The translations under genes were made by a program, and so were the position numbers. Shown in pieces: positions 12,774 to 31,133 of a stretch of DNA of 64,000 nt (the stretch's first letter is position 1; each line of letters starts with the position of its first letter). Source of the stretch: a virus. The stretch covers positions 1-64,000 of IMG/VR virus record IMGVR_UViG_3300042544_000912, one strand, 5' to 3'. The notes under the pieces are model-generated. The model saw nothing but the letters and a program-made list of their open reading frames with translations. It was not told the DNA's origin and ran no database searches.

Positions 12774-14086
12774 GCGTAAAAGAAAAATTAGATTCTGTCG
12801 GACATGGCTTTTGCCCGCAAAAGTGGAGATGGCTTGCGCTTTATCTCCATTCAGGTCATAAGCATAGTTGTCATCATCCACCGCCGATGCATATTGCACT
12901 GGAGGAGATTTCCAAGGATCCTGCCGCGCTGCACAACACTTCACATGAAAAACAACAGCGTAAGACAATGCTGGAGGGCGGAAGACCGACCGAATGTTCA
13001 TACTGCTGGAGTATTGAAGATCTAGATAAAACAAGTGACCGTGTTTATAAGAACACCGATACCATAAACAATTTGTTTGTTTTAGACGATGAAATCGAAA
13101 CACTAAAGAATGTTCCTTGGGATCAAAACGTAAATCCCTATAACATGGAAATTAGTTTCAGTAATGCTTGTAATTTCAAATGCGGATATTGCTGTCCTAC
13201 ATTTTCTTCTCTGTGGGAAGATGAGATTAAACAACATGGCAATTATGATCTGAATTATGACCAATATGGATTGCACAATAAGATTTATTCTGAAAAAGAA
13301 TATAATCCTTATGTTGAAGCATTTTGGAAATGGTGGCCAGATTTGAAGAATGACTTAAAGATTTTTCGCATCACAGGCGGCGAGCCGCTAATGACTACTA
13401 ACACATTCAAGTTATTAGACATGTTAAAAGAAGATGGTAATCCGGAGTTGTTTCTACAGATTAATACCAACCTGGGTGTAACGAATCGAAAAGTCACTGA
13501 CTTCTGCCTTCGCGTTAATGATTTGATTGAAAAGAAGCATATCAAAAATCTTCGGTTGTTTACAAGCCTTGAATGCACGGGTAAGCAAGCAGAATATATG
13601 CGCCGCGGCTTAAACTACGAATTGTTCTTAGAAAATGTAAACACAGTCTTAGAAACAGTCCCTACCGCATATCTAAGTTTCATGACAACGTATAATGTGT
13701 TGACTGTTCCTTATTTCAAAGACTTTCTTCAATTAATAGTTGAATTGCGTGAAAAATGGGGCGAGAGAATTCTTATCGATATTCCTCACCTTAAAGAACC
13801 GCCTCATTGGACAATGAATATTTTACCCCCGGAGTTTGGAACATATATAGATAATGATGTTCAATACATGAAGCAAAACGGTTTCAGTGATATTGAAATC
13901 GGCAAAATGGAACGTGTCAGAGAATATTTCTATAACGATACGCATAATATCACCGACGAATACCGGTTGAATGGTAGAAAAGATTTTGCGAAGTTTTTTC
14001 CGGAATATGACCGTAGAAGTAACAGTAGTTTAATAGAAACATTTCCTGAATTTTCAGAATTTTTAGAATGGTGTAAAACATTATGA
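12770..14086 (+). CDS. radical SAM protein with N-terminal Twitch-like domain (copy 1)
   Basis: CNFKCGYC (CxxxCxxC), RITGGEP, N-terminal FCPQKW..SCHH..CSYC; TTG start overlapping the upstream TGA. Confidence 0.9.
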   Translation: MSVKEKLDSVGHGFCPQKWRWLALYLHSGHKHSCHHPPPMHIALEEISKDPAALHNTSHEKQQRKTMLEGGRPTECSYCWSIEDLDKTSDRVYKNTDTINNLFVLDDEIETLKNVPWDQNVNPYNMEISFSNACNFKCGYCCPTFSSLWEDEIKQHGNYDLNYDQYGLHNKIYSEKEYNPYVEAFWKWWPDLKNDLKIFRITGGEPLMTTNTFKLLDMLKEDGNPELFLQINTNLGVTNRKVTDFCLRVNDLIEKKHIKNLRLFTSLECTGKQAEYMRRGLNYELFLENVNTVLETVPTAYLSFMTTYNVLTVPYFKDFLQLIVELREKWGERILIDIPHLKEPPHWTMNILPPEFGTYIDNDVQYMKQNGFSDIEIGKMERVREYFYNDTHNITDEYRLNGRKDFAKFFPEYDRRSNSSLIETFPEFSEFLEWCKTL

Positions 14087-15507
14087 ATGACGATATCCAC
14101 ACTGAGCATAACTTGGATGTTCATTCTGTTGATTCTTATTGGAATTTCCTTAAAGAGAAACGCGAAGACATCAATTCTGTTAGTCCAACGTTTTGTGCGG
14201 CCAAGTGGAAGCAATCGACTATTCTTCTGTATAGCGGAGAAACGCATAGTTGCCACCATCCCTCACGACATAAAATTACTTTAGATGATATTAAAGATAA
14301 TCCACGGGGTATTCACAACACGGCAGTAAAAAAAGCAGCCCGTATTGATATGCTCAATGGTATACAAACTAAAGAATGTGATTATTGCTGGAAAATTGAG
14401 AACCTGAATAAAGATTGGATGAGTGATAGGATATACAAGTCCACATATTCATGGGCTCTCCCGCATATCGATGAAATTGTAAAATCTGGTGATGGAGCAA
14501 ATATCGACCCGTCATATTTAGAAGTTGCCTTTGAATCTACCTGTAATTTTAAATGCGTATACTGTAGCCCAGAAAGTTCTTCAAGATGGCAAGAAGAAAT
14601 CGAAACTCACGGTCCAATCGAACTGGAAGATTTCAAATTACATGATCTTGGATGGTTGAAGGAAGTTGGAAAACTTCCAATTCATCGTAAAGAACAAAAT
14701 CCATATATTGATGCTTTTTGGAAGTGGTGGCCTGACCTCTATCCCAATCTACATACGTTTAGAATAACTGGTGGTGAACCCCTACTCAGTAAACACACTT
14801 GGCGAGTCCTTGACTATATTGCCGAAAATCCAAATCCTAATTTAACACTTGCGATCAATACCAATCTCAATGTTCCTGATAAATTAGTTGAGAAACTAGT
14901 AGAATATATTAATAGAATCTCTGGTAATATTAAATTATTTGATGTATATACTTCTCTTGAAAGCACAGGTAAACAGGCTGAGTATTCTAGATTTGGTATG
15001 CAATTTGATGAGTTTAAGAAAAACTGTGAATATGTGTTAGACAATACGCCCGACACCACTAGACTACATTACATGACTACTATAAATCTGACTAGTGCAC
15101 CGACTCTTCTTGAATACCTGAAATATATTAGAGAAATGAGATTACGATATTTCAGTAAATTACATGAATTTAGAGTAAGAACCCATCTTTCATATCTTCG
15201 TTGGCCTAGAATGTTATGTTTGACGTTATTATCAGATGAAGATAAACAGAAGTTTGGAGACTTATGGATAGAATACGTCGAGCAGCATAAACTAACACAA
15301 CTGAAATCTACCGAAGAAACATTTTATTTAGAAGAAGTGGATCAGGTAAGAAGATTGGTTGACTATATGAGATCAACCAAAGAACCACAATCTTTATATA
15401 AAGACTTTAGAAACTATACTCGAAGTCTGGACAAACGTAGAAAAACCTCATTTGTTGAGACGTTTCCAGAACTTGCATATTTAATGGACGATGATTACTA
15501 TGGATGA
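14083..15507 (+). CDS. radical SAM protein with N-terminal Twitch-like domain (copy 2)
   Basis: CNFKCVYC, RITGGEP, FCAAKW..SCHH..CDYC. Confidence 0.9.
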   Translation: MNDDIHTEHNLDVHSVDSYWNFLKEKREDINSVSPTFCAAKWKQSTILLYSGETHSCHHPSRHKITLDDIKDNPRGIHNTAVKKAARIDMLNGIQTKECDYCWKIENLNKDWMSDRIYKSTYSWALPHIDEIVKSGDGANIDPSYLEVAFESTCNFKCVYCSPESSSRWQEEIETHGPIELEDFKLHDLGWLKEVGKLPIHRKEQNPYIDAFWKWWPDLYPNLHTFRITGGEPLLSKHTWRVLDYIAENPNPNLTLAINTNLNVPDKLVEKLVEYINRISGNIKLFDVYTSLESTGKQAEYSRFGMQFDEFKKNCEYVLDNTPDTTRLHYMTTINLTSAPTLLEYLKYIREMRLRYFSKLHEFRVRTHLSYLRWPRMLCLTLLSDEDKQKFGDLWIEYVEQHKLTQLKSTEETFYLEEVDQVRRLVDYMRSTKEPQSLYKDFRNYTRSLDKRRKTSFVETFPELAYLMDDDYYG

Positions 15508-16819
15508 CCCCATGTTAAATTTTAGAAACGCCGTTTTGGATTCTAAATCAAAATCTTTCTGTGGTGCCAAATGGGGAAATAGTACCCTTTGGTTAAATAG
15601 TGGAGAAACCAGTAGTTGTCACCTGCCTCCTGTCCATAAGATTGATGCTGAACAGATTGCAATCGATCCTTCTAAGTTGCACAATACAGATCATAAATTT
15701 AAAATGCGCAAGTTGATGCAGGACGGTATTAAACCCTCCGAATGTGATTATTGTTGGAAAATTGAAAGTATGGGCGATACTTTTATTTCCGACCGCGTCT
15801 TTAAGTCTCTACAGTTTACAAATGATGAGATGCAGGAATGGTTCGAACTTCCGGCAGATACTAGAATTATTCCTCCTACCCTGGAAGTAATGTTCGACCG
15901 TACCTGCAATTTTGCATGTAGTTACTGTAATGCAAATTTCAGTACCACATGGGAACGTGATATCAAGACGCACGGATATTATGAACTGGAAACTAGAGGT
16001 GGTGGTGCATTTAAACATGATGGTTCATATAACAATACGCACGAAAAAACTTCTAATCCGTATATCTCAGCATTCTGGGAATGGTGGCCAGAACTTAGTC
16101 AAAAACTTCGGGTTCTCCGCATAACAGGCGGAGAACCATTAATGAATACCGATGTTTGGAAGCTGATTGATATGTTTGCTGAAAACAAATATACTTTCGA
16201 GCTTGGCATCAATACAAATTTGGGCGCCAAGAAATCGATTATTGATAGGCTCATCAAAAAGTCATTTGATATCGAAAAGCTGTGTCTCTTTACAAGTATG
16301 GAAACAACAGGCGCCCAAGCGGAATATATTAGAGATGGGTTAGATTATGACGCATGGTGTAACAACGTAGAACGTATTTTGGAAGAATCTAATGTTAAAC
16401 GTATCGTTGTGATGATGACTATTAATGCCTTGTGTCTGTTCAATATTACCGAATTTATGGATCAGGTGCAACAATGGAAGCGCAAATACAATAACAGAAT
16501 TTCGATGAGCATAAATTTTCTTAGATTCCCTGCATTTCAGAGTTTGACTGTTCTTCCTGATAACATTAGAACTGCGGCACATGAGAAGTTGCTTGTGTGG
16601 TATGAAAAAAATAAAAACGAATTAATAGGCAATGAAAAGAGTGACGTAGAACGGTTAATATCTTATGTAAGTGTAATCGAAACTCCTCACGCATATGACG
16701 ATGACTTGGAATTGAATCGTAAAGATTTTAAGAGTTTTTATTCCCAATACAGTCATCGCAGAAATAAAACACTAGATGTATTTCCAGGAGAACTGCTAGA
16801 ATGGTACAACACATTATGA
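15500..16819 (+). CDS. radical SAM protein with N-terminal Twitch-like domain (copy 3)
   Basis: CNFACSYC, RITGGEP, FCGAKW..SCHL..CDYC. Confidence 0.9.
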   Translation: MDDPMLNFRNAVLDSKSKSFCGAKWGNSTLWLNSGETSSCHLPPVHKIDAEQIAIDPSKLHNTDHKFKMRKLMQDGIKPSECDYCWKIESMGDTFISDRVFKSLQFTNDEMQEWFELPADTRIIPPTLEVMFDRTCNFACSYCNANFSTTWERDIKTHGYYELETRGGGAFKHDGSYNNTHEKTSNPYISAFWEWWPELSQKLRVLRITGGEPLMNTDVWKLIDMFAENKYTFELGINTNLGAKKSIIDRLIKKSFDIEKLCLFTSMETTGAQAEYIRDGLDYDAWCNNVERILEESNVKRIVVMMTINALCLFNITEFMDQVQQWKRKYNNRISMSINFLRFPAFQSLTVLPDNIRTAAHEKLLVWYEKNKNELIGNEKSDVERLISYVSVIETPHAYDDDLELNRKDFKSFYSQYSHRRNKTLDVFPGELLEWYNTL

Positions 16820-17994
16820 GAAATGATGGCTATTGTGCGCTACCATTTAATCATATGAATCTACATCCAAACGGAAACGTTTCTATATGTTGTGTGTCTA
16901 AAATGGGAGGACCAGATAGCGGTTTTGCCAAAGATGAAAATGGTAAGCTATTAAATCTACGAACCCATACGATAAATGAAATTTTTGATGCTCCGTCTGT
17001 TAACAAGATCCGCGAACAGATGTTAAATGGGGAATTTCCATCTGCTTGTGAGGGCTGCTATAAAATAGAACAGTATGGTGGAAAATCTCGAAGAACCACA
17101 GAAAATACTCGTTGGCCAAAACGCGAAACGCCTGGATTAGAATTTATCGATTTGCGATTGAGTAATCTATGTAATCTGAAATGTCTAATGTGTTATCCAG
17201 ATTCCAGCTCGGCTTTGGTAACAGATTATAACGAGTGGGCAGACAGTCTTCCGTTCGTGACAAAGAATAATACAGATTTTGATAATTTCCAGTGGTTTAA
17301 CGAAGACATCATCGATCAATTGAAAGAACATAAAGATACTTTGAAATATCTTTATATCAATGGCGGCGAACCTTTCATTATGCCAATGCAGTGGAAAATG
17401 TTGGAGAAATTAATTGAGTGGGATGTTGCTAAAAATATTCACATTAGCTATAATACAAATTGCACAACCTATAGCGATTCTTTTAGCGAATATTGGAAAC
17501 ATTTTAAAGTGGTCACGTTGGGATGCAGTGTAGACGCCACAGGAGATAAGAATTCTTTTATTCGATATCCGTCAAAGTGGGATGTCGCAAATGAAAATAT
17601 TCGCAAATTGTTAGAGAATCCATATATTCATGGCATGAATATTACTTGTAGTATTCAGTGGTTAAATGCACCCTTTTTACCTGAATTTTATGATTGGGCA
17701 GTGCCATTGACCAAACTTAAACCGCATACTACAATCAATCAGAATTTTATAGTATTCCCCGATTACTTGTCGTTAAATTGTGCGTCTAAACAATTTAAGC
17801 AGGACTTATCTACGGTTTATGAGGAATCTCAATACAGAGATTATATTTTGACTGAAACAATGAAATCATATCTTAGATTTTCTCCAGATTCATCTGAGCA
17901 ATGGAATAATGGTAATAAATACCTCGACGTAGTGCAGTTGAGCCGAAAAATGGGCCCATGGAAAGATATATTCGATTATGACTATAGATTCTAA
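16816..17994 (+). CDS. radical SAM protein with N-terminal Twitch-like domain (copy 4)
   Basis: CNLKCLMC, NGGEP, YCALPF..ICC..CEGC. Confidence 0.9.
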   Translation: MRNDGYCALPFNHMNLHPNGNVSICCVSKMGGPDSGFAKDENGKLLNLRTHTINEIFDAPSVNKIREQMLNGEFPSACEGCYKIEQYGGKSRRTTENTRWPKRETPGLEFIDLRLSNLCNLKCLMCYPDSSSALVTDYNEWADSLPFVTKNNTDFDNFQWFNEDIIDQLKEHKDTLKYLYINGGEPFIMPMQWKMLEKLIEWDVAKNIHISYNTNCTTYSDSFSEYWKHFKVVTLGCSVDATGDKNSFIRYPSKWDVANENIRKLLENPYIHGMNITCSIQWLNAPFLPEFYDWAVPLTKLKPHTTINQNFIVFPDYLSLNCASKQFKQDLSTVYEESQYRDYILTETMKSYLRFSPDSSEQWNNGNKYLDVVQLSRKMGPWKDIFDYDYRF

Positions 17995-19246
17995 TAATAA
18001 TACAATTTGTCCCTATCCTTTTGTGCATTCCTATATAGGTTCGCAGTATGAAAGAAAATTGTGTTGTATTTCCGACGACATTGATGGGTTACAAAAAACA
18101 ACTGTAGACCAGTTTTGGAATTCTGATTTTATGCGTGAAACTCGCAAGAAAATGGTATCTGGTGAAAAAGTAGACCATTGCAATAGATGTTATTATTTTG
18201 AGAGTATTGATGTTCCATCTTTGCGCGAAGAAAGTTGCCGACATTACGATGAAAAAGATTTGTTCGAGGGGTATAATCCTGATACTGGAGAGATGAGTGT
18301 AAACCCGACCTATTTTGACCATAGAACAATTTATTGCAATTTACAGTGCGTGAGTTGTGGATATGTTTATAGTTCTACCCACATGTCACTTTATGAAAAG
18401 ATGTGGAATAAAACTATACAATTTAAAGTCGACCGAGAGTTTGAAGAAAATACCGCGAAAGAAATTTTGGATTCTATCAAAAATAAAGAATGTAGGAATA
18501 TTTACTGGGCGGGCGGCGAGCCTATGATGTCAAAAGTCCATTGGATGGTTGTCGAATTGATGGAACAACTATCCTCGGACCCGGAGTATTCTGATTACAT
18601 TCGAGGATTAGGTGTCCATTATAATACAAATCTTACTAAGTTATCTTGGAATGGTAAAAATATTCCAGATATGTTGGAATTCTATCAACCATCGATTCAG
18701 GCAAGCATCGACGGCACACATGAAACCTTTGAGTATTGTCGTGATGGTGGTAGATGGGATTCTGTATCAACCAATTGGGACGAGTATTATGAGAAGCTGA
18801 ATAAGAATCAACAATTTGGTATTGCTTCTGTTCTCTCGTCTCCGGTATTAATGGACATCGACCGCTGGTTTGATTTTTTTGAACAATATAATGTAAAAAT
18901 CTATAATCACAAATATATTTGTCATCATGAACAATATCCACATTCTGCGCAAGGATTTTTAGATATTAGACTTTTTCCACAGCATATTTTTGATAAAGTG
19001 GTAAATCATGCTATTAGTAGATTTGAAAACAGCAATATGATTGGCGCAGATAAAAGTATTGATATTATTAAATCCTATATTCAAGAAAAAGAAATGTATA
19101 AAGAATTTTTTGAAGATATGGAATTGTTGAAGGAAATCAAGAAAACTAATGAATATAGAGATAAGTTCAACAAGGGTGGTAAAACATATCCTGAGTTACT
19201 ACAAATAATTAATCCTGAAGCATATGAGTGGTATTTGTCCATATGA
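17978..19246 (+). CDS. radical SAM protein with N-terminal Twitch-like domain (copy 5)
   Basis: CNLQCVSC, AGGEP, ICPYPF..LCC..CNRC. Confidence 0.9.
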   Translation: MTIDSNNNTICPYPFVHSYIGSQYERKLCCISDDIDGLQKTTVDQFWNSDFMRETRKKMVSGEKVDHCNRCYYFESIDVPSLREESCRHYDEKDLFEGYNPDTGEMSVNPTYFDHRTIYCNLQCVSCGYVYSSTHMSLYEKMWNKTIQFKVDREFEENTAKEILDSIKNKECRNIYWAGGEPMMSKVHWMVVELMEQLSSDPEYSDYIRGLGVHYNTNLTKLSWNGKNIPDMLEFYQPSIQASIDGTHETFEYCRDGGRWDSVSTNWDEYYEKLNKNQQFGIASVLSSPVLMDIDRWFDFFEQYNVKIYNHKYICHHEQYPHSAQGFLDIRLFPQHIFDKVVNHAISRFENSNMIGADKSIDIIKSYIQEKEMYKEFFEDMELLKEIKKTNEYRDKFNKGGKTYPELLQIINPEAYEWYLSI

Positions 19247-20388
19247 GCGAAACCAAAATTTATTGTCCGTCTATGTGGAAATCAGTGCATGTTGATACTG
19301 ATGGCTATGTAACTCCATGCTGTCTTTTTATTCATAAAGAGGACAAAAAAAGCAAACTCGTTAATATAGAACATGCCGAGAGAGTTTTGCAAGAAGAATT
19401 CCAGGAGTACCGAGATCAACTCTCAGAGGGAATCTGGCCCAGCGGCTGCAATCAATGTAAATTCGCAGAAGAAGAAGGTAGATCGAGTAAACGTCAACAA
19501 GATTTGTGGGTTATTGACGGCGGATTGATGAAAACTAATCCAGAAGAAGTTTCTCTGGAATATCTGCAATTAAAAACTGGAAGATTGTGTAATCTTCGGT
19601 GCACTATATGCACTCCAGCTTGTTCAACTGCAATCTCGACGGAATTGTTACGCAAGGGTGAATTGGACCGAGAAACATATGACCGTCTCAACGAAGAAAT
19701 TGCTTGGTCGTATAATCTTGAACAATACAAAAAATTAAATCCCGGAAAAAACGGATACTTCAGGATTGATATTGCCGGCGGTGAACCGCTTATGAATAAA
19801 ACGCATTTTGAGTGGTTAGATCAAATCCCAAATCCAGAAAATACACAATTGTTATATAATACCAATGGTACGCAACGGCCGTCTCGTGAAGAAATTGAAA
19901 TCTGGAAAAAGTTTAGAGGAATATGGCTGTCATTCAGTATCGATTCTTACGGTGAAAAGTTTGAACAATTGAGAGTTGGTGCGAAGTGGAATCAAGTTCT
20001 TGACAATTTAAAATATTGTCAGGAAGAAATTATAGCAAAAGAATTTGATACTAACACTTCTAATTGCTCCATTGTCATGACAGTTAGTAAATTTAATGTT
20101 CGAGATGCGATTACACTCTATCAAATAATTAATCAGTATGTAACATTTACACATAAAGAACCGTTAAATTTTAATTATCTATATTATCCTGAACAAATGG
20201 CTTGTCACAACATGCCTAAGAAAGAGTTGGAGGATGTAATAGCTTTATATGACCAACAAATTCCTATGTTACTAGATGGTAGTAAAATGAAGAAACAATG
20301 TATAGATTTGCGTAATAGTTTAGCATCATTTCTAGAGGATAAGCAAATTGAGAATCCTAGACCTATTTCTATTGATCACAGGAAATAA
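19243..20388 (+). CDS. radical SAM protein with N-terminal Twitch-like domain (copy 6)
   Basis: CNLRCTIC, AGGEP, YCPSMW..PCC..CNQC. Confidence 0.9.
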   Translation: MSETKIYCPSMWKSVHVDTDGYVTPCCLFIHKEDKKSKLVNIEHAERVLQEEFQEYRDQLSEGIWPSGCNQCKFAEEEGRSSKRQQDLWVIDGGLMKTNPEEVSLEYLQLKTGRLCNLRCTICTPACSTAISTELLRKGELDRETYDRLNEEIAWSYNLEQYKKLNPGKNGYFRIDIAGGEPLMNKTHFEWLDQIPNPENTQLLYNTNGTQRPSREEIEIWKKFRGIWLSFSIDSYGEKFEQLRVGAKWNQVLDNLKYCQEEIIAKEFDTNTSNCSIVMTVSKFNVRDAITLYQIINQYVTFTHKEPLNFNYLYYPEQMACHNMPKKELEDVIALYDQQIPMLLDGSKMKKQCIDLRNSLASFLEDKQIENPRPISIDHRK

Positions 20389-21221: not shown

Positions 21222-21297
21222 ATCATATTTTGCTAAAAGAAAGTATCTAAAACGAATTAAAGAATTGCGTAAACTGGATCCGTTCATTTATGATTGA
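21193..21297 (+). CDS. 34-aa basic peptide (not in the ORF track)
   Basis: MLKLLINKIKSYFAKRKYLKRIKELRKLDPFIYD; the ELRK.DPFIY end is a motif I recognise upstream of phage carbamoyltransferases; overlaps both neighbours. Confidence 0.6.
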   Translation: MLKLLINKIKSYFAKRKYLKRIKELRKLDPFIYD

Positions 21298-22723
21298 ATG
21301 GGGTATATCTGCCGCAGCACATGATGCGTCTTTGACTGTTGTTTCTGGTAATGAAATTTTGTTCGCCTCTCATGCGGAAAGATATTCTGGCATCAAGAAT
21401 GATAAGGACTTAAATGCTGATTTAATTCACGCGGCATTAAAATTTGGTAAGCCAGAAAAGATACACTGGTACGAAAAACCAAAACTTAGAGCGATGAGAC
21501 GATTGCTATCTGGTCAGGGCCTCGTTCGATTTAGTGTTAGACAGTATCTTGCGGCATTCGGTCTAAAAGATATTCCTGTTGAATTTGCATATCATCATGA
21601 ATCCCATGCCGCAGCTGGCTTTTACACTTCGCCTTATGAGAATGCGACCGCTCTCGTTATTGACGCTATCGGTGAATTTGATACCGCGTCTATCTGGAAA
21701 TGTTCCGGTGAGAACCTGAAAAAGAAATGGTCGATGGACTATCCCAAGTCTTTGGGACTGTTCTACTCTGCCATGACAGACCGAGTTGGTCTTAAAGCAA
21801 ATGAAGATGAATATATCTTAATGGGAATGGTAGCATATGGCGAACCCGAAAAATATTACGACGAAGTTAGAAATCTTTGGGAATCTGAAAACCTTCATCG
21901 CGGATGTCGTTGGTGGCGTAATGATGACTTTGATTTGGACCACTATAGTGTTGCCGCAGCAACGCAAAAAGTATATGAAGAAGAATTTGAAAAACTACTG
22001 ATACGCGCAAAGATGAAAGACACCTTCCAAGACAATCTTGTTCTTATGGGTGGATGTGCGTTAAACTGTAGTGCAAATCATATTGCACGAAAGTATTTTG
22101 ATAATGTCTGGATTATGCCTAATCCTGGAGATTCGGGTAGTTCTTTAGGTGCTATTGCAGCTAACAACAGACAGAAGTTTAACTGGAAGGGCCCATATCT
22201 AGGCGCAGATATGGGAGGAGAGTTTCCTGTAGAAAAACTCTTGACAGAATTGCGTAAGACGGGTATAGTGGGTGTAGCAAATGGGCAAGCAGAATTTGGG
22301 CCAAGAGCATTAGGCAATCGCAGTCTTCTAGCAGACCCACGAGGTCATGATATAAAGGACAGAGTAAATGAAATCAAGCAACGACAGAAGTTTCGTCCGT
22401 TCGCTCCAGTCATTCTGGCAGAACATGCGAGAGACTACTTTGAAATGTCATGGGAAGACTCCCCTTATATGCAATATACTTCAAGATGTAAATATCCTGA
22501 TCGGTTTCCTGCTATTGTTCATGCTGATGGGACATCTCGTGTCCAGACTGTGACAAAAGAGCAACATTCTGGACTATATGAACTTATTAGCAGATGGTAT
22601 GAAGAAACTGGATGTCCAATGCTATTGAATACGAGTCTCAATATCAAGGGTATGCCCATGGTGAATAACTTCAAAGATGCAGACGATTTTGAGGCCAAAT
22701 ATGGCGTGAAAGTCTTTTCGTAA
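21290..22723 (+). CDS. carbamoyltransferase, NodU/CmcH family
   Basis: HDAS, HHESHAAAGF, IDAIGE, SLGLFYS, MGGCALNC, EFGPRALGNRSLLADPR, RPFAP, LLNTSLN. Confidence 0.95.
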   Translation: MIEWGISAAAHDASLTVVSGNEILFASHAERYSGIKNDKDLNADLIHAALKFGKPEKIHWYEKPKLRAMRRLLSGQGLVRFSVRQYLAAFGLKDIPVEFAYHHESHAAAGFYTSPYENATALVIDAIGEFDTASIWKCSGENLKKKWSMDYPKSLGLFYSAMTDRVGLKANEDEYILMGMVAYGEPEKYYDEVRNLWESENLHRGCRWWRNDDFDLDHYSVAAATQKVYEEEFEKLLIRAKMKDTFQDNLVLMGGCALNCSANHIARKYFDNVWIMPNPGDSGSSLGAIAANNRQKFNWKGPYLGADMGGEFPVEKLLTELRKTGIVGVANGQAEFGPRALGNRSLLADPRGHDIKDRVNEIKQRQKFRPFAPVILAEHARDYFEMSWEDSPYMQYTSRCKYPDRFPAIVHADGTSRVQTVTKEQHSGLYELISRWYEETGCPMLLNTSLNIKGMPMVNNFKDADDFEAKYGVKVFS

Positions 22724-23685: not shown

Positions 23686-24441
23686 ATGGCAAGAAAAAAA
23701 CAAAACCCATTACAAGTTGTCTCAAATAACGATGCTCCAGTAACCTTAGAGAAGAGTAAATTATGCAAGGTAAAATACGAAGACCTCAAACACATTCAAC
23801 CAAAGAACTTCAATCAGAGACAATTTTTTGAATTATACGATCAACAGTCCACAGCAACTCTACTACACGGTGTAGCAGGTACAGGGAAAACCTACATCGC
23901 ACTTTATAAAGCACTAGAGGAAGCACTAAATCCAGAGACAGTATTTGAGCGAGTAGTGATTGTCCGCTCTGCTGTTCCATCAAGAGAAATTGGTCATCTA
24001 CCAGGAGATGAAAAAGAAAAGACAGAAGTTTATCAGTTACCTTATGTAGAAATCTGCGAGGATTTGTTTAATCATATCCAGCCATTTCAGCGATTGCAAG
24101 AACAGAAGTCGGTGAACTTTATGATCACCTCATTTGTTCGTGGTATCACTCTAGATAATTCCATCGTCATTGTTGATGAGTGTCAGAACATGACGGATAT
24201 GGAACTTAACTCAATCATGACCCGAATTGGCAGAAACTCAAAGATCATCTTTTGCGGAGATTTCCGCCAAACCGATCTATATAAAAAGAACGATATGTCG
24301 GGACTTCAAAAGTTCATCGCTATCGCCGAACTAATGCCTTCGTTCAAAACTATAGAGTTTTCTGTTCATGATATAGTAAGGTCGAAATTAGTTAAGGAAT
24401 ATATTCTGGCCAGACTAGAATATGAGGAGAGATACGCATAA
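23686..24441 (+). CDS. phoH: PhoH-family ATPase
   Basis: GVAGTGKT Walker A, IGHLPGD, RGITLDNSIVIVDECQN, TRIG, GDFRQTD. Confidence 0.92.
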   Translation: MARKKQNPLQVVSNNDAPVTLEKSKLCKVKYEDLKHIQPKNFNQRQFFELYDQQSTATLLHGVAGTGKTYIALYKALEEALNPETVFERVVIVRSAVPSREIGHLPGDEKEKTEVYQLPYVEICEDLFNHIQPFQRLQEQKSVNFMITSFVRGITLDNSIVIVDECQNMTDMELNSIMTRIGRNSKIIFCGDFRQTDLYKKNDMSGLQKFIAIAELMPSFKTIEFSVHDIVRSKLVKEYILARLEYEERYA

Positions 24442-24446
24442 AAGAC

Positions 24447-24475
24447 TTGACAAACTAAGCGAATCATGTTATAAG
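24447..24475 (+). promoter_or_regulatory. sigma70-type promoter
   Basis: TTGACA-N17-TATAAG with an extended TG. Confidence 0.6.
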
Positions 24476-24480
24476 AGTAT

Positions 24481-25149
24481 ATGTTTAAAACGATCTATGA
24501 TTATACCGATTTCGCCCAAGATGAAACAAGAGAAGATGGTAGCAGAGTTTACGTCAATGCCTTAGGTGTTGGATATCCCTCTGCTACCACTGTTCTCGGT
24601 GTTCTGAATAAAGATGGCATCAACAAGTGGCGTGAGCGCGTTGGCGAAGAAGAAGCCAATCGCATTTCTAAGCAAGCTACTACTCGTGGAACTAAAATCC
24701 ACACACTTACCGAATCATATCTAAAGAATGAAGAAGTCGATTTCGATAGCGTGAAAGCGTCCTTGTTAGACAAGGAAATGTTCAATAAGTTTAAATCAAT
24801 TCTTGACCCTATCGATAACATTCACTGCCAAGAACTGGCGCTATACAGCGACTTCTTGCGTATGGCTGGTCGTGTTGACTGTATCGGAGAATACAACGGT
24901 ATTCGTGCCGTAATCGACTTTAAGACTTCTAATCGGCCCAAGAAGAAGGAACATATCAGTTCCTACTTTATGCAGACCGCTGCATATGCAATCATGTATG
25001 AAGAACGAACTGGTATTCCTGTTCCCTTTCTCGTTATCTTGATTGCCGTAGATGGTGATGAGCCTCAGGTGTTCGTAGAAAAACGAGACAATTGGGCAAA
25101 AAAATTGCTTGAAGCCCGTGATTTGTTTGAAAAAGGTATTGACAAATAA
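24481..25149 (+). CDS. PD-(D/E)xK exonuclease (phage RecB/Cas4-like family)
   Basis: YPSATTVL, RGTKIH, ELALYSD, AGRVDCI, IDFKTS, YFMQ..AYA. Confidence 0.85.
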   Translation: MFKTIYDYTDFAQDETREDGSRVYVNALGVGYPSATTVLGVLNKDGINKWRERVGEEEANRISKQATTRGTKIHTLTESYLKNEEVDFDSVKASLLDKEMFNKFKSILDPIDNIHCQELALYSDFLRMAGRVDCIGEYNGIRAVIDFKTSNRPKKKEHISSYFMQTAAYAIMYEERTGIPVPFLVILIAVDGDEPQVFVEKRDNWAKKLLEARDLFEKGIDK

Positions 25150-25167
25150 GACTTAAGGTCTTATATA
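25139..25167 (+). promoter_or_regulatory. sigma70-type promoter of the tmRNA gene
   Basis: TTGACA-N17-TATATA; the spacer contains the inverted repeat ATAAGAC-ttaag-GTCTTAT. Confidence 0.6.
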
Positions 25168-25173
25168 TAGATT

Positions 25174-25476
25174 ATCAGTTGTTGACAGGCAACAATAAAG
25201 GCGGAAAGACGCGGGTGCAACTCCCGCCACCTCCACCATAGATACATCAAGGTCCGACCCGAAAGGGGTGCCTACTAAAGTGAGGGATGATGGTGTATCT
25301 ATGATGGGGGTGAACTAGGATCGATTTTCGTGTAATAGGAAGTCCGAGACTGATTGCTTGGCAAAGTGCCACTAAAAGTAAATGCAAACGATAACGTTGC
25401 CTTTGCAGGATATGCGCTAGCCGCATAATCTCATTGGGTTTTTGATAGTTTTCCCTCGAAACAGAATAAAACTATC
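25174..25476 (+). ncRNA. ssrA: circularly permuted (two-piece) tmRNA
   Basis: T-arm GCGGG-TGCAACT-CCCGC plus CACCTCC-A-CCA (25211-25238) lies before the 5' strand GGGGGTG (25306-25312), giving a 7-bp acceptor stem with G3:U70; self-paired intervening segment 25239-25305; tag ORF 25384-25428 ANDNVAFAGYALAA*; 3' hairpin 25444-25476; 5' and 3' ends approximate. Confidence 0.93.
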
Positions 25477-25539
25477 ACCTGTTCTTCTTATACGATGAAA
25501 TGCGTGGAAGTAGAACTTAGAAATGCTAAATAGTTATAT

Positions 25540-25587
25540 GACCCGACGTGTGTAACTGAATAAGCCAAACACAGCGGGTCTTTTTTT
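25540..25587 (+). terminator. intrinsic terminator/attenuator upstream of the cell wall hydrolase
   Basis: GACCCG...CGGGTC bulged hairpin followed by T7; CTAAATA late-promoter-like element at 25526-25532. Confidence 0.6.
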
Positions 25588-25658
25588 GTCTTCGGGCAAT
25601 CAGTGTGGGGAGTCACTGGCTAATACCCTCTCAAGTTTAACAACTAAATGGAAATAAG

Positions 25659-26264
25659 ATGACTTCCTTAAACAAGAAGTTCTTCAAGTTTCTTTCGATT
25701 ATTACACTATTAAGTTATGGTTTATATGGAATTAATTCATATGCTGAAACTGCCATCGAAAGAGAAGCAAGGGAATATTCCCTCGGCGTCGGAGAAGTAA
25801 TTCAGGACATCAAAGAAGATGCCCAAGAACAACAACGAAAAGTAACACAACAAAGAATCCAGACGCAAAATATCCGTCTGGCAAATAATAGAGAATTGAA
25901 GTGTCTAGCAGACAACATCTATTATGAGGCTGGTAACCAGTCTACTCACGGCAAATTGGCCGTTGCTGCCGTCACTATCAATCGGGTAAATAGCCCCAAG
26001 TTTCCTAAATCTGTATGCTCCGTTGTATACCAGAGAACAAAACGTGTTTGTCAGTTCTCGTGGGTGTGCGAAGGAAAGAAGAGTGTCCGCAGTGCGCAAC
26101 AATATGCAGAAGCCAAAAGAGTGGCTGAGAAGGTATTGTTCGCCGGAGCCAATCATGGCGTATTAGGAAAAAATGTTCTATTCTACCATGCAGACTACGT
26201 AAATCCCCGTTGGAACTTACGTAGAGTAGCTAAAATTGGTGATCATATATTTTATGCAGGATAA
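25659..26264 (+). CDS. SleB-type cell wall hydrolase (Hydrolase_2) with N-terminal anchor
   Basis: CLADNIYYEAGNQ, VTINRV, FPKSVCSVVYQ, CQFSW, FYHADYVNPRW, IGDHIFY. Confidence 0.88.
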   Translation: MTSLNKKFFKFLSIITLLSYGLYGINSYAETAIEREAREYSLGVGEVIQDIKEDAQEQQRKVTQQRIQTQNIRLANNRELKCLADNIYYEAGNQSTHGKLAVAAVTINRVNSPKFPKSVCSVVYQRTKRVCQFSWVCEGKKSVRSAQQYAEAKRVAEKVLFAGANHGVLGKNVLFYHADYVNPRWNLRRVAKIGDHIFYAG

Positions 26265-26267
26265 AGA

Positions 26268-26813
26268 ATGGGTAAGAGAAGCAACTTTGAACATCGTAAG
26301 AATGATTTCTATCCGACTCCGTTGGATGCAGTAAAGCCTCTCTTACCCTTTCTTCCATCGGAGTTTACCTTCGCTGAGCCTTGCGCTGGCGACGGTAGAC
26401 TCTGTAGGCATATCGATACACTAACTGATAGTAATGCAGTAGCTACTTTGGTTTCCGATCTTGAACCTAAAGACCCTTCTATTGAAAAATATGATGCATT
26501 AACTGTTGACATTCCCGCTAATACAGAGTATATTATAACTAATCCGCCATGGTCTAGATGGATACTACATCCATTGATTGATAGGTTTGCTAGTATTCGC
26601 CCAACTTGGCTTCTCTTTGACGCCGACTGGATGCATACAAAACAAGCGATACCCTATCTACAGTATTGTAGTAAAATTGTGGCCATTGGCAGAGTGAAGT
26701 GGATTGAAGATAGTAAGTTTACTGGCAAGGATAATGCTTGCTGGTATCTTTTTGATAAAAATGAAATGAGTGGAACACAATTTTATGGTCGAGGATTTTC
26801 AAGTGGTAGATGA
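26268..26813 (+). CDS. small amino-DNA methyltransferase (N6-adenine type)
   Basis: DFYPTP, EPCAGDG SAM-binding motif, IITNPPW catalytic motif. Confidence 0.8.
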   Translation: MGKRSNFEHRKNDFYPTPLDAVKPLLPFLPSEFTFAEPCAGDGRLCRHIDTLTDSNAVATLVSDLEPKDPSIEKYDALTVDIPANTEYIITNPPWSRWILHPLIDRFASIRPTWLLFDADWMHTKQAIPYLQYCSKIVAIGRVKWIEDSKFTGKDNACWYLFDKNEMSGTQFYGRGFSSGR

Positions 26814-27060
26814 AATCAGCAACGAATTTCTGATTACGAAGAAGTTTAAAACTTCTACAGAGTTTTCTCAATTTATTGAGAAGCAAGCCTCATCGACAGG
26901 TCTACAGTGTATGGACTTGTTAGTTGATTATTGCGTGAAGAATGAGATTGAAATGGAATCAGTATCGGTTCTGTTGACTACTTCACTCAAGGAAAAGATC
27001 CGCGCGGAAGCGGAAGAACTAAATATGTTGAAGCGCAAGGATGGAAAGCTCCCCTTCTAA
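26788..27060 (+). CDS. gp33: late promoter transcription co-activator gp33
   Basis: FSQFIEK..MDLLVDYCVKNEIE..LKEKIRAEAEELNML..KLPF; position before gp59; start uncertain. Confidence 0.8.
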   Translation, partial: VEDFQVVDEISNEFLITKKFKTSTEFSQFIEKQASSTGLQCMDLLVDYCVKNEIEMESVSVLLTTSLKEKIRAEAEELNMLKRKDGKLPF

Positions 27061-27650
27061 TGGACTCTTTCGAAGTTTATCGTGTCTACATGTCACTCAA
27101 ACTTCATTTTACTTCCGATGATTACGACATCACAAAAACAAAATCTGGCGTTAGATGTAAACGTGAAACATTCCTTAAGCGTAAGGATGTTCTATTGTTT
27201 CGTAAGTTAGCCAAACGATTTAGTTTTACTGAAATGGTGGACTATTTCGTAGCCAACTTTGTCAATGGACATAATGGTCTATTTGATGCCGAAAGTGATA
27301 ATGTATATCGGGACTGGAAGTCTAGAAAAGAGAAGCTGACATATCTGTTCACGCAAGATATCTCTACACTTATGTTAGAGGCTGAAAAAGCAAACGTTGA
27401 CCCATTGATTAGTGACGGTCAACATCCCCTAGCATTAAAACTATATCTTGGTAAAAAAATTAGTCTTGAAACTCTAGTTATTCTTGACAAATTATTTAAT
27501 TTCGTGTATAGTAACAATACTACGTTAGCAAACGATTTTATATGGAAAGATGTATCCCGTTTGATAACAAAGTACCGTGTCTTTGTCAAATTTGATAAAG
27601 ACAAATTCTCTCAACTATGGATCAAGGAGAAAGGCCAAGTGGTCTGTTAA
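27060..27650 (+). CDS. gp59: helicase loader gp59
   Basis: YRVYMSLKLHFT..YD, FLKRKD..FRKLA, ISLETLVILD. Confidence 0.85.
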   Translation: MDSFEVYRVYMSLKLHFTSDDYDITKTKSGVRCKRETFLKRKDVLLFRKLAKRFSFTEMVDYFVANFVNGHNGLFDAESDNVYRDWKSRKEKLTYLFTQDISTLMLEAEKANVDPLISDGQHPLALKLYLGKKISLETLVILDKLFNFVYSNNTTLANDFIWKDVSRLITKYRVFVKFDKDKFSQLWIKEKGQVVC

Positions 27651-27859: not shown

Positions 27860-28777
27860 ATGTCTTTTAATTCTCTATCGGAACTCCGTAAGAACCGTGG
27901 CAACTTCGACTCGCTCATGAAGGAAGTCGAAAAGATTGCAAATCCCACAAACGAAAAGCGCGGCGATGATGACCGCTTCTGGAAGCCTTCTGTAGATAAG
28001 GCTGGCAATGGCCAGGCTGTTCTTCGTTTTCTTCCTGCACCTCCAGGTGAAGAACTTCCTTGGGTTCGTGTGTATGATCATGGCTTCCAAGGCCCGACCG
28101 GAAAGTGGTACATCGAAAACTCGTTGACTACTATTAACAAGCCAGACCCTCTTGGTGAACTCAATTCAGAACTCTGGAATTCGGGTATCGAAGCCAACAA
28201 GGAAATCGCTCGTAAACAGAAGCGCCGCTTGTCCTATATCTCTAACGTTCTTGTTGTTCGTGACCCTTCGAACCCTGAGAACGAAGGTAAGGTCTTCCTC
28301 TATAAGTATGGTAAGAAGATTTTTGACAAGATCAAGGACGTAATGCAGCCTACCTTTGAAGATGAGAAGCCGGTTAATCCGTTCGATCTTTGGGAAGGTG
28401 CTAACTTCAAGCTCCGTATTCGTCAGGTAGAAGGCTATCGTAACTACGATAAGTCAGAATTTGATGGTAATACACCTCTTGATGAAAATGAAGATAAGCT
28501 AGAAGCAATCTGGAAAGAAACGCATTCACTTGCTGCTTTCCTCGACCCTTCGAACTTCAAGTCTTATGATGAACTCAAGGCCAAGCTGAATACTGTTCTC
28601 GGTGCAGGTACCCGTGTGCCTACCGCTGAGAAGGTAAATCCGCTTGATGCAGAAGATGAACTTTTCGTTGAAACCAAGATGAAGACGGCTGCTAAGGCAA
28701 CCGAAGATACTCCGCCTTGGAGTGACGATACTGCCGATGATAATATGAGTTACTTCGCAAGTCTTGCGGATGACTAA
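27860..28777 (+). CDS. gp32: single-stranded DNA-binding protein gp32
   Basis: DDRFWKP..GNGQAVLRFLPAP, HGFQGPTGKWYIENS, YGKKIFDKI, NPFDLWEGANFKLRIR, YRNYDKSEF; acidic tail. Confidence 0.96.
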   Translation: MSFNSLSELRKNRGNFDSLMKEVEKIANPTNEKRGDDDRFWKPSVDKAGNGQAVLRFLPAPPGEELPWVRVYDHGFQGPTGKWYIENSLTTINKPDPLGELNSELWNSGIEANKEIARKQKRRLSYISNVLVVRDPSNPENEGKVFLYKYGKKIFDKIKDVMQPTFEDEKPVNPFDLWEGANFKLRIRQVEGYRNYDKSEFDGNTPLDENEDKLEAIWKETHSLAAFLDPSNFKSYDELKAKLNTVLGAGTRVPTAEKVNPLDAEDELFVETKMKTAAKATEDTPPWSDDTADDNMSYFASLADD

Positions 28778-28782
28778 AAGAG

Positions 28783-28810
28783 AAAGGGGCGCTTAGAGCG
28801 CCCCTTTTTT
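28783..28810. terminator. bidirectional intrinsic terminator
   Basis: AAAGGGGCGC-TTAGA-GCGCCCCTTTTTT between convergent genes. Confidence 0.85.
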
Positions 28811-31133
28811 ATGCCATTGCTCGTTTTAGAGCAAATCTCATCCAACTACTTTCATCGTCTCTAACATAAGATTTGGTATTTGGTACAGTGGTGCTTTCTG
28901 GTTTGGCACCACCTCCTCCACCCTGATTAATAATAGTAGGGGGCGGAACATTTACTTTCATCTGGTCTTTGGCTTTTTCTGTTCCTTGCTCTAAGATGCC
29001 ACTATCAGGATTTTGACCAGACTCCACTTTCTTCTCATCGCCACCCGACATCCAATCCCATGCTTTAGATGCACCTACTGCGGCTAGACCCACACCACCT
29101 AAACCGGCTGCGGCCATCAATGGATTCTTCTTTACAAATCCTGCAGCGCGGCTGAATATGCCGCCACCTGGCTTACCTTGAACGGCAGCTGGTTTAGACT
29201 GCGATGTCGCTTTTGGTGCTTGCGCGGCTTCTGCGGCACGTGTTTCTGGTGTGCCACCTAAGGCTCCCATATCTCTAGCAGCCAGTGCAGCATCTAATCC
29301 AACAGAAGCGGCTGTTCCCACGCCAGGAATAGTTCCCGCTGCACCCGATGCCAATTCTAGACCTGCACCTGTCCAGTCACCAGCCATTGCTCTCTGTGCA
29401 GCAAATACCCCACCAGCAACAAGACCAACTCCTGGTATTTTCTTTAATAGTGATTTACCAACTGCTTTTGCGCCAACTTTAGCTACACCCTTAGACGCAA
29501 CTTTTTCTCCGGCTTTAACTGCACCCTTTTGACCCGCTTTAGTAGCAGCCTTTTCACCCGCTTTAGTAGCAGCCTTTTCACCCGCTTTAGCTGCACCCTT
29601 CTCGGCCGCTTTAGCTTCATTTTTAGCACCTGAACCACCTGCGTCTACTAGGTCAGTAGCGGTCATCGCAGCATTTGTGGATATATTCGCAGACGAACTT
29701 TCCGTGTCATCACTTGCAACCATTGCTCCTAGACCAATAGCACCCGCGCCAGCCGCTAATGCACCTAATATGCCTCTTCCTTTACCCGGTTTTCTGCCAG
29801 CAGGAAGGTCTGGTGTTCTTTTTACAAATCTACCCTTAGCGTCTCTTGGCTGACTTCTAGCTCTATCCGATTTACTTTGTTTGCGATTATCAGGAGCATC
29901 TAAACTGCCGCCGCGTTTTCTACTCGGTAAATCGATATCGATGCTTGGCAATCCACCGCTATCTCCGCCACCGGATTCTCCTCCGATATTATCTATGGAG
30001 TCTGCAATTTTTTGCATACTCTTATTGATAGCATCGATAAGTTCTAATGTCTGTTTCGATGTATCAGATATGCCCTTTATAACTTCCGTCTGCTCTTCAA
30101 TCGCATCAACTACAGGACTGTCTGCTAGTCCAGCGGAAACTTCTTGCATATCGCTACCAGTATCTGTTACTGGTGAAGCTATTTCAGCCGCCGCTGGTTT
30201 GTCAGGAACAATAGCGGTCTTGTTGTTTCTATCATCGTAATCTTTTTCTATCTCAGCATTGATATCTTTCAACGATACTGGCTTACCAGCTTTACGATAT
30301 GAAATATCTTTTTCGGAAGCGGGTGCAATACCTTTTTGCGCCAACATCTTTTTCTGATCTTCTGTCAGGTCGACCATTTTTTCTGCTTCTGGTGCCCAAC
30401 CCTGCTTCTCTCGTTCGGCACTTCTTTTAGCTTTATCAGATGTAAATATTTGGTCTCGGAAACTACCTTCTTTACCTTTTAATACACCCTTAGCGAATTC
30501 TTTCATTGCGCCTTTTGCGCCTTGACGAAGCGCGGTACCAAATGCTCTTACTCCGGTCTTCTTTGTATCTATAGGTTCTTTATTTCCTAGAGCGCGACTA
30601 AATCTATTAGCAAAAGTATCTTTATCACCACGAAGATCCATTTTATTGACACGGAAATGTTCGTCCTTGGCCGCCTTAGCAGTATCTCCAAATCTTTTGG
30701 CACCGTCAACATTGCCAGATTTTTCTGCTAATGCTTGACCCTTCTTTGCTAGGTCAACAACCTCTTTGATACCCTTATTGAATCCTTCTAGATTCTTTTC
30801 AGTTAGTTTACCAATTTCGGTAACTAAGTCTGTCATCATTTTGTGTTCGGCTTCGCTAAACTTTTCTAAGTCTTTACTTAGATTGTCTGTTGCTGCCGAA
30901 AGTATCTTACCTGCGCTCTCGCCGTCTACTCGCGTGATTGATAGCGGACTTGTTGAATCTTTAATCTTGTTTAACTGCGGTTCTTTTCCTTTACCCGCGC
31001 CAGTTGAACTTAGTAACTTCTTGATATCACGCCCAAGTTGGGTCATTTCGTCCAGACGTTCGACAACAGGATCTGGCCCGTTATTTGGGGCAGTCTGCAA
31101 TCTATCTGATAGTCCTTGTAAGTTACTGGCCAT
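28809..31133 (-). CDS. tail tape-measure/baseplate hub protein (gp29-like)
   Basis: 774 aa, helical and Ala/Gly-rich; LLKKIPGVGL..AGDWTGAGLELASG motif; 24-nt tandem repeat at 29533-29580 (KAGEKAAT); directly after gp26/gp51. Confidence 0.6.
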   Translation of the reverse strand: MASNLQGLSDRLQTAPNNGPDPVVERLDEMTQLGRDIKKLLSSTGAGKGKEPQLNKIKDSTSPLSITRVDGESAGKILSAATDNLSKDLEKFSEAEHKMMTDLVTEIGKLTEKNLEGFNKGIKEVVDLAKKGQALAEKSGNVDGAKRFGDTAKAAKDEHFRVNKMDLRGDKDTFANRFSRALGNKEPIDTKKTGVRAFGTALRQGAKGAMKEFAKGVLKGKEGSFRDQIFTSDKAKRSAEREKQGWAPEAEKMVDLTEDQKKMLAQKGIAPASEKDISYRKAGKPVSLKDINAEIEKDYDDRNNKTAIVPDKPAAAEIASPVTDTGSDMQEVSAGLADSPVVDAIEEQTEVIKGISDTSKQTLELIDAINKSMQKIADSIDNIGGESGGGDSGGLPSIDIDLPSRKRGGSLDAPDNRKQSKSDRARSQPRDAKGRFVKRTPDLPAGRKPGKGRGILGALAAGAGAIGLGAMVASDDTESSSANISTNAAMTATDLVDAGGSGAKNEAKAAEKGAAKAGEKAATKAGEKAATKAGQKGAVKAGEKVASKGVAKVGAKAVGKSLLKKIPGVGLVAGGVFAAQRAMAGDWTGAGLELASGAAGTIPGVGTAASVGLDAALAARDMGALGGTPETRAAEAAQAPKATSQSKPAAVQGKPGGGIFSRAAGFVKKNPLMAAAGLGGVGLAAVGASKAWDWMSGGDEKKVESGQNPDSGILEQGTEKAKDQMKVNVPPPTIINQGGGGGAKPESTTVPNTKSYVRDDESSWMRFALKRAMA

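Follow-up and report, generated by a model that had tools for sequence, protein, structure and literature searches.

The two-piece tmRNA of bacteria, of the Caulobacter type (Keiler et al. 2000, as cited in PMC9004378), is made as a single precursor, from which tRNA-processing enzymes produce two RNAs that stay joined through base pairs (PMC11915505). Two-piece tmRNA genes have also been published for T4-like phages of SAR11 and OM43, including Melnitz and pelagimyophages: as recognized by ARAGORN, 53 of 402 phage tmRNA genes are of the two-piece form, and such a gene is present in 17 of 47 Melnitz-like contigs (PMC9004378). A tmRNA database released in 2025 holds 79 phage tmRNAs and 11,946 permuted genes (PMC11915505). 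For the related phages, it has been suggested that the tmRNA maintains the hijacked translation machinery or serves to recycle proteins (Buchholz et al. 2022, PMC9004378). The Melnitz tmRNA gene follows an early-type promoter, and a glutamine riboswitch in the tmRNA 3′ domain has been reported for Melnitz and Mosig only (PMC9004378), so that it does not define the pelagimyophage/Melnitz type.

The locus described here lies within a window of 64,000 nucleotides, i.e. the first 64 kb of a 130,898-bp IMG/VR virus record (IMGVR_UViG_3300042544_000912) that is estimated to be about 80% complete. It very probably represents a functional phage ssrA gene of the circularly permuted (two-piece) form found in Alphaproteobacteria. 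ARAGORN called a permuted tmRNA with the tag ANDNVAFAGYALAA at 25146–25519, and two Rfam models were covered in full, namely RF04321 (tmRNA_permuted; 103.4 bits, cut-off 47) and RF01849 (alpha_tmRNA; 75.9 bits, cut-off 50). With E-values of 4.7e-19 and 8e-19 for the 64-kb window, the match is far beyond chance by the measure of these models. ARAGORN and the Rfam alpha_tmRNA search, two of the checks proposed in the initial annotation, thus both call the tmRNA, and they do so cleanly, contrary to its warning that standard scans may miss or mislabel the gene. Nor did the novelty that it implied withstand comparison with the literature: the window tmRNA belongs to an already published class, since two-piece genes are known from the same phage group (PMC9004378) and 79 phage tmRNAs have been catalogued (PMC11915505). 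As a discovery, the gene therefore adds little. Its RF01849 score of 75.9 bits lies below that of nearly every match over the cut-off in 151 genomes of Alphaproteobacteria, which mostly score about 160–313 bits, and this difference marks the phage RNA as a reduced, divergent relative of the bacterial alpha tmRNAs.

All parts of the RNA are on the plus strand, and the acceptor half precedes the 5′ half, with CCA at 25236–25238 and G1 at 25306. The acceptor piece (25174–25238, 65 nt), as delimited by ARAGORN, the Rfam alignment and pair counts, comprises the 3′ strand of helix P2a (25201–25207), the T arm (25211–25227), whose loop, UGCAACU, is non-canonical, the acceptor 3′ strand CACCTCC (25228–25234), the discriminator A (25235) and the encoded CCA, the last two giving ACCA at 25235–25238. 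It is followed by an intervening segment, hereafter called the spacer (25239–25305, exactly 67 nt), which is recognized by its fold and by compensatory changes and is presumably removed in maturation. The coding piece begins at 25306 and extends to approximately 25486, near which conservation among relatives stops. It comprises the acceptor 5′ strand GGGGGTG (25306–25312), the P2a 5′ strand (25325–25331), a strand complementary to 25174–25180 that would form a distal helix (25348–25354), a hairpin in the PK1 position (25359–25371), the tag reading frame (25384–25428) and a conserved 3′ hairpin (25444–25476) made of a 9-bp stem and a 15-nt loop with an invariant CCUCGAAACAGAA. The two acceptor strands rebuild a 7-bp stem in which all seven pairs form and G25308:U25232 is the G3:U70 pair, while the spacer closes on itself through an 11-bp end stem. 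The permuted order, the rebuilt stem with its alanine determinant, the self-closing 67-nt segment and the tag frame were all present as the initial annotation had described them; its interval, 25174–25476, runs from the likely transcript start to the end of the conserved 3′ hairpin.

We then turned to the relatives of this locus. At least 587 IMG/VR stretches encode a relative of the neighbouring nuclease, which indicates an abundant, uncultured lineage; 80 of them, with 71–100% identity, were retained. In 78 of the 80 contigs, ARAGORN found a permuted tmRNA directly downstream of the nuclease, and the remaining two loci stop right after the nuclease, before the tmRNA position. Twenty-seven distinct copies were aligned with MAFFT and scored against an explicit pairing model: 94.6% of the cells pair, compared to 42–47% when the partners are slid by 1–3 columns, and the covariation score is 0.389 versus 0.141 in shuffles, none of 500 shuffles reaching 0.389. 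The G3:U70 pair is invariant (27 of 27 sequences). In these copies, compensatory changes affect two of the five T-stem pairs and two of the seven acceptor pairs, as well as five of the nine pairs of the 3′ hairpin, where 99.6% of the cells pair; across relatives, they affect 10 of the 11 pairs of the stem that closes the spacer. The tmRNA is thus under clear selection in all the contigs that reach past the nuclease, i.e. 78 of the 80 examined. Selection on a private tmRNA strengthens the case that large aquatic phages need control of ribosome rescue.

P2a (25325–25331 with 25201–25207) comprises seven pairs that occur in the same register in three classes of differing sequence, and comparison identifies it as the helix that joins both pieces beside the tRNA-like domain. 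Its support is understated by the MAFFT alignment owing to a one-column register shift, and single-sequence co-folding, which recovered the acceptor stem and the T arm, did not recover it. The distal helix (25174–25180 with 25348–25354) pairs in all 27 copies and is almost invariant, without compensatory change; an alternative local hairpin (25178–25184 with 25190–25196) pairs in 77% of the cells, also without compensatory change. Segment 25174–25180 may pair with the coding piece, or the local hairpin may form instead. At the PK1 position, alignment and pair counts reveal a conserved 4–5-bp hairpin, for which no sterically plausible second stem could be drawn.

The tag frame, defined by ARAGORN and by the pattern of variation among relatives, runs from the resume codon GCA at 25384 to a TAA stop codon (25426–25428) and encodes ANDNVAFAGYALAA. 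Among relatives, five DNA alleles give the identical peptide ANDNVAFALAA, two give ANDNVAFAGYALAA, and the length variants of the tag all differ by whole codons. Since synonymous alleles encode one peptide and all length changes preserve the frame, we conclude that the tag is translated. The ALAA end is retained in the relatives, and the context of the resume codon is invariant. ARAGORN, Rfam, the phage context, covariation and the tag alleles together bear out the central claim made for this DNA, i.e. a phage-encoded permuted tmRNA, probably of the alphaproteobacterial type, with an intact tag under selection. That ANDN-type tags typify Alphaproteobacteria also agrees with their occurrence in bacterial alpha tmRNAs and MAGs. 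Bacterial tags starting with ANDNVAFA are found in MAGs of Rhodospirillales, Rickettsiales and Hyphomicrobiales, and none of the ANDNVAFA-type alphaproteobacterial tags compared is identical to ANDNVAFAGYALAA. We therefore rejected the tag as a guide to the host, its start being spread over several orders.

The gene has its own promoter, of the sigma-70 type, with a −35 box TTGACA at 25139–25144, which is overlapped by the final codons of the nuclease gene, and, 17 nt further, a −10 box TATATA at 25162–25167. All 80 related loci keep the arrangement TTGAC[A/T]–17 nt–TATA[A/T]A at a constant distance, despite differing upstream genes. Because of the position of this promoter, the predicted transcript start is likely near 25174, the 5′ end of the acceptor piece. 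In 67 of the 80 loci (e.g. L033, L038), the −10 box is TATAAA and overlaps a T4-late-type TATAAATA, an overlap that suggests that most relatives transcribe the gene both early and late; the −10 region of the window has TATATATA in place of TATAAATA. At the other end, a terminator-like hairpin (25540–25580) followed by seven T (25581–25587) is likely to be the end of the primary transcript, as predicted from fold and sequence. It was missed by a simple terminator scan because its loop is long. This hairpin shows no conservation in L033, in which conservation ends at about 25486. An additional hairpin is predicted at 25481–25516, downstream of the conserved 3′ hairpin and ahead of the terminator-like one.

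The genes flanking the tmRNA were assigned with Pfam and include, besides PhoH, a PD-(D/E)XK nuclease upstream (24481–25149; PF12705, E = 3.5e-7) and, downstream, a cell-wall hydrolase (Hydrolase_2/SleB-like, 25659–26264; PF07486, E = 8e-25), a gp33-like late-transcription coactivator (26770–27060; PF16805, E = 6e-18), a T4-type gp59 helicase loader (27060–27650; PF08993/PF08994) and the single-strand DNA-binding protein gp32 (27860–28777; PF08804), all on the plus strand. No ORF of at least 60 codons is present on either strand in 25150–25658. The gp59 and gp32 genes mark the source record as a T4-like phage by gene content, and the genome that carries the permuted tmRNA is of the lytic type. 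Its gp32 is about 57% identical to that of Methylophilales phage Melnitz, Pelagibacter phage HTVC008M and cyanomyophages. A near-identity search with 24000–27000 against 50,697 phage records returned no match, and in a distant DNA search the tmRNA region matched only 48 nt of the annotated Mosig SsrA, with 87.5% identity. No SmpB gene was found in the 131-kb record (about 80% complete), which implies that host factors are needed. The sole tRNA of the record, Arg(TCT), was uninformative as to the host: its best full-length matches, of about 81%, lie in unrelated enterobacterial phages.

The locus resembles the Mosig/Melnitz type in that a T4-like phage carries a permuted alpha-type tmRNA. As in Mosig, ssrA comes after a PD-(D/E)XK nuclease and before the gp33-like and gp59 genes, the spacer is closed by a hairpin, and the 3′ hairpin bears a GAAACAGAA loop, which is also part of the Rfam alpha consensus. 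By contrast, the window tag is ANDNVAFAGYALAA and that of Mosig GEDNFALAA, and two extra genes separate the tmRNA from the gp33-like gene, which in Mosig directly follows SsrA. The window further departs from the Mosig/Melnitz type in its GC content (41.6% overall) and in the modest identity of its gp32; as to the promoter, the early type of Melnitz has its counterpart in the sigma-70 type of the window. The Rfam glnA and Downstream-peptide models gave no match at E ≤ 1 in 24400–27100, i.e. no glutamine riboswitch was detected there. With the bacterial alpha tmRNA (RF01849), the phage RNA shares gene order, G3:U70, the encoded CCA, an ANDN... tag ending in AA, P2a, a hairpin-closed spacer ending in ...TGAT and the AACAGAA 3′ element; it differs by a shorter P2 region, a spacer of 67 nt instead of a median of 37 nt, and its place in a lytic-type genome in which, at about 80% completeness, no smpB was found. 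Like the one-piece phage tmRNAs (e.g. those of mycobacteriophages), it is an ssrA gene on a phage genome and would presumably depend on SmpB from the host; unlike them, it is permuted, and it carries a tag, whereas the DS6A form is tRNA-like and tag-less. The comparative set (structure, tag alleles, promoter) should be useful for the design of experiments in the culturable phages Mosig and Melnitz.

By analogy with established tmRNA biology, processing, charging, tagging and benefit to the phage may be pictured as follows. Host RNA polymerase with sigma-70 would start near 25174 and transcribe up to the terminator-like hairpin near 25587. In the precursor, as found by comparative analysis, 25228–25234 pairs with 25306–25312, and a hairpin closes the 67-nt spacer in between. 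RNase P would cut 5′ of G25306, as it does in bacterial two-piece tmRNA, and 3′ trimming would expose the encoded CCA, ending at 25238. Two products are expected, the acceptor piece, 65 nt long, and the coding piece, about 175 nt long, which the acceptor stem and helix P2 would join. Host alanyl-tRNA synthetase would charge the RNA by virtue of G3:U70, and host SmpB and EF-Tu would bring it to stalled ribosomes, where translation would resume at GCA 25384, append ANDNVAFAGYALAA and stop at UAA; the ...YALAA end would then direct the tagged product to ClpXP-type proteolysis. Compatibility with the SmpB, AlaRS and RNase P of the host is assumed. The phage would benefit from ribosomes being kept free and amino acids being recycled at a time of host mRNA destruction and failing host ssrA expression. 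A benefit of this kind was proposed for Melnitz by Buchholz et al. (PMC9004378). A role against host RNA-cleaving defences or host tmRNA loss, as put forward initially, is conceivable but finds no support in the sequence.

Less expected in this comparison is that the excised spacer turns over in the manner of a cassette. In the window, the spacer folds with −23.5 kcal/mol (z = −3.67; none of 200 shuffles folds as well); its closing stem pairs 25239–25249 with 25291–25301, including one G–U pair, and an unpaired TGAT leader sits between this stem and G1. Among relatives, spacer length ranges from 3 to 144 nt. In 68 gene pairs, spacer identity falls below 60% even though the mature parts agree at 95% or more of their positions. 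Conversely, the window and L033 share all 67 spacer nucleotides with mature parts that are 85% identical, and the island of identity has sharp edges, substitutions starting within about 12–16 nt on either side. Overall, the 39 distinct genes display 24 spacer types on eight mature backgrounds, six types being found on two backgrounds. As judged from these alignments, the 67-nt spacer behaves as an exchangeable cassette. Besides the window/L033 pair, identical or nearly identical spacers on backgrounds of 76–85% identity were seen in L004/L082, L024/L058, L038/L053 and L041/L066, and nearly identical tmRNA backgrounds also carry unrelated spacers. One gene is atypical (L044:4998–5425): the sequence after its GGGGGCG match does not look like the usual D-loop analogue, and the true G1 may lie further downstream, with a longer spacer.

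At the short end of the range, L062, L076 and L077 have only 3–5 nt between CCA and G1; by analogy with tRNA processing, a single RNase P cut and minimal trimming would separate the pieces. Since these three relatives keep an intact tmRNA, the tmRNA is independent of the spacer. At the long end is a class of 133–134-nt spacers (L013:4711–4894, L030:2270–2457, and also L031, L039, L042, L078, L079 and L081), which contain a Shine-Dalgarno sequence, an ATG and a Cys-rich ORF of 57–58 codons (MVICSCRD...DDFCCGTC...) that continues into the acceptor 5′ strand of the tmRNA and whose copies differ mainly at synonymous sites. Pfam gave nothing significant for this ORF, and a comparison with 5.8 billion proteins matched only two clusters of the same ORF; it may resemble BFD-like [2Fe-2S] CxC...CGxC motifs. 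As for a self-cleaving ribozyme, the spacers have no Rfam match and the spacer types no common core. In bacterial alpha genes, spacers are often hairpin-closed as well, ending in ...TGAT, with a median length of 37 nt; the closing stem is therefore a family trait, and it may only keep the insertion from disturbing the tRNA-like fold. We tentatively consider, as a rather unlikely alternative to such a passive role, that the spacer is an exchangeable cargo slot unloaded by the host tRNA-processing enzymes, the 67-nt hairpin being released as an independently functional small RNA; the slot of the relatives would then carry other hairpins or the gene for a small Cys-rich protein. If spacer RNAs or small ORFs proved functional, this would amount to cargo expression without splicing.

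A more radical version would make the spacer the actual payload, with the tmRNA as a mere scaffold from which host tRNA-processing enzymes free a small RNA or, in relatives, a small mRNA. The 24 spacer types on eight mature backgrounds, six of them found on two, the spacer common to the window and L033, the compensatory changes in the closing stem and the conserved ORF of one spacer class are what such a scheme would lead one to expect. However, the intact tmRNAs of L062, L076 and L077 have next to no spacer to release, which argues that it is the tmRNA itself that is being maintained; the hairpin-closed spacers of bacterial genes indicate that the stem may do no more than shield the tRNA-like fold; and the spacer interiors have neither a common motif nor any RNA known to Rfam. 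We regard this explanation as improbable. The same holds, with greater force, for a decoy role, in which the RNA would tie up host SmpB, AlaRS or ribosomes and so block host trans-translation rather than perform it. There is a precedent, since the tag-less, tRNA-like tmRNA of the mycobacteriophage DS6A inhibits the endogenous tmRNA in E. coli (PMC11915505), and the phage RNA is reduced compared to bacterial alpha tmRNAs. Yet a decoy needs neither a tag frame nor an invariant resume-codon context, whereas here it is the tag peptide that is conserved (five alleles for one peptide, whole-codon indels, a retained ALAA end) and the context does not vary, so that we hold a decoy to be very improbable.

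The working-tmRNA reading has finally to be weighed against a functionless host ssrA, brought in by recombination, left over at an integration site or joined to phage DNA in a chimeric assembly. tmRNA genes do often serve as integration sites, and pieces of them are found in prophages (PMC9004378). But the gene retains its full length and a conserved promoter of its own, it has undergone compensatory evolution and has a selected tag, it occupies the same position in 78 independent contigs, and its flanking genes are T4-like. Moreover, a search for the 3′ element in 185,579 bacterial species genomes had as its sole match a phage contig mis-binned in a MAG. The comparative data in effect refute a remnant, to which we give a negligible probability. 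The contig in question (L265; RGCF01000015.1, 46.6 kb), labelled as a Bacteroidetes MAG, carries PhoH, the nuclease, a permuted tmRNA with the tag ANDNDVAFAGYALAA, the hydrolase and gp59 in the order of the window; we rejected it as evidence for a host or for a bacterial tmRNA, as it is a phage contig of the window's family binned into the MAG.

Two other regions of the window stand out by their composition. Five tandem paralogous radical-SAM genes of 386–474 codons, two of them with an N-terminal SPASM domain, occupy 14083–20388, a block of low GC content (35–36% versus 41.6% overall); they are followed by a 276-codon ORF without assignment and by a carbamoyltransferase gene (21290–22723), and the whole may be a modification or biosynthesis island. 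On the minus strand, 28809–31133 encodes a 774-codon ORF that has no Pfam match and is locally GC-rich (48%).
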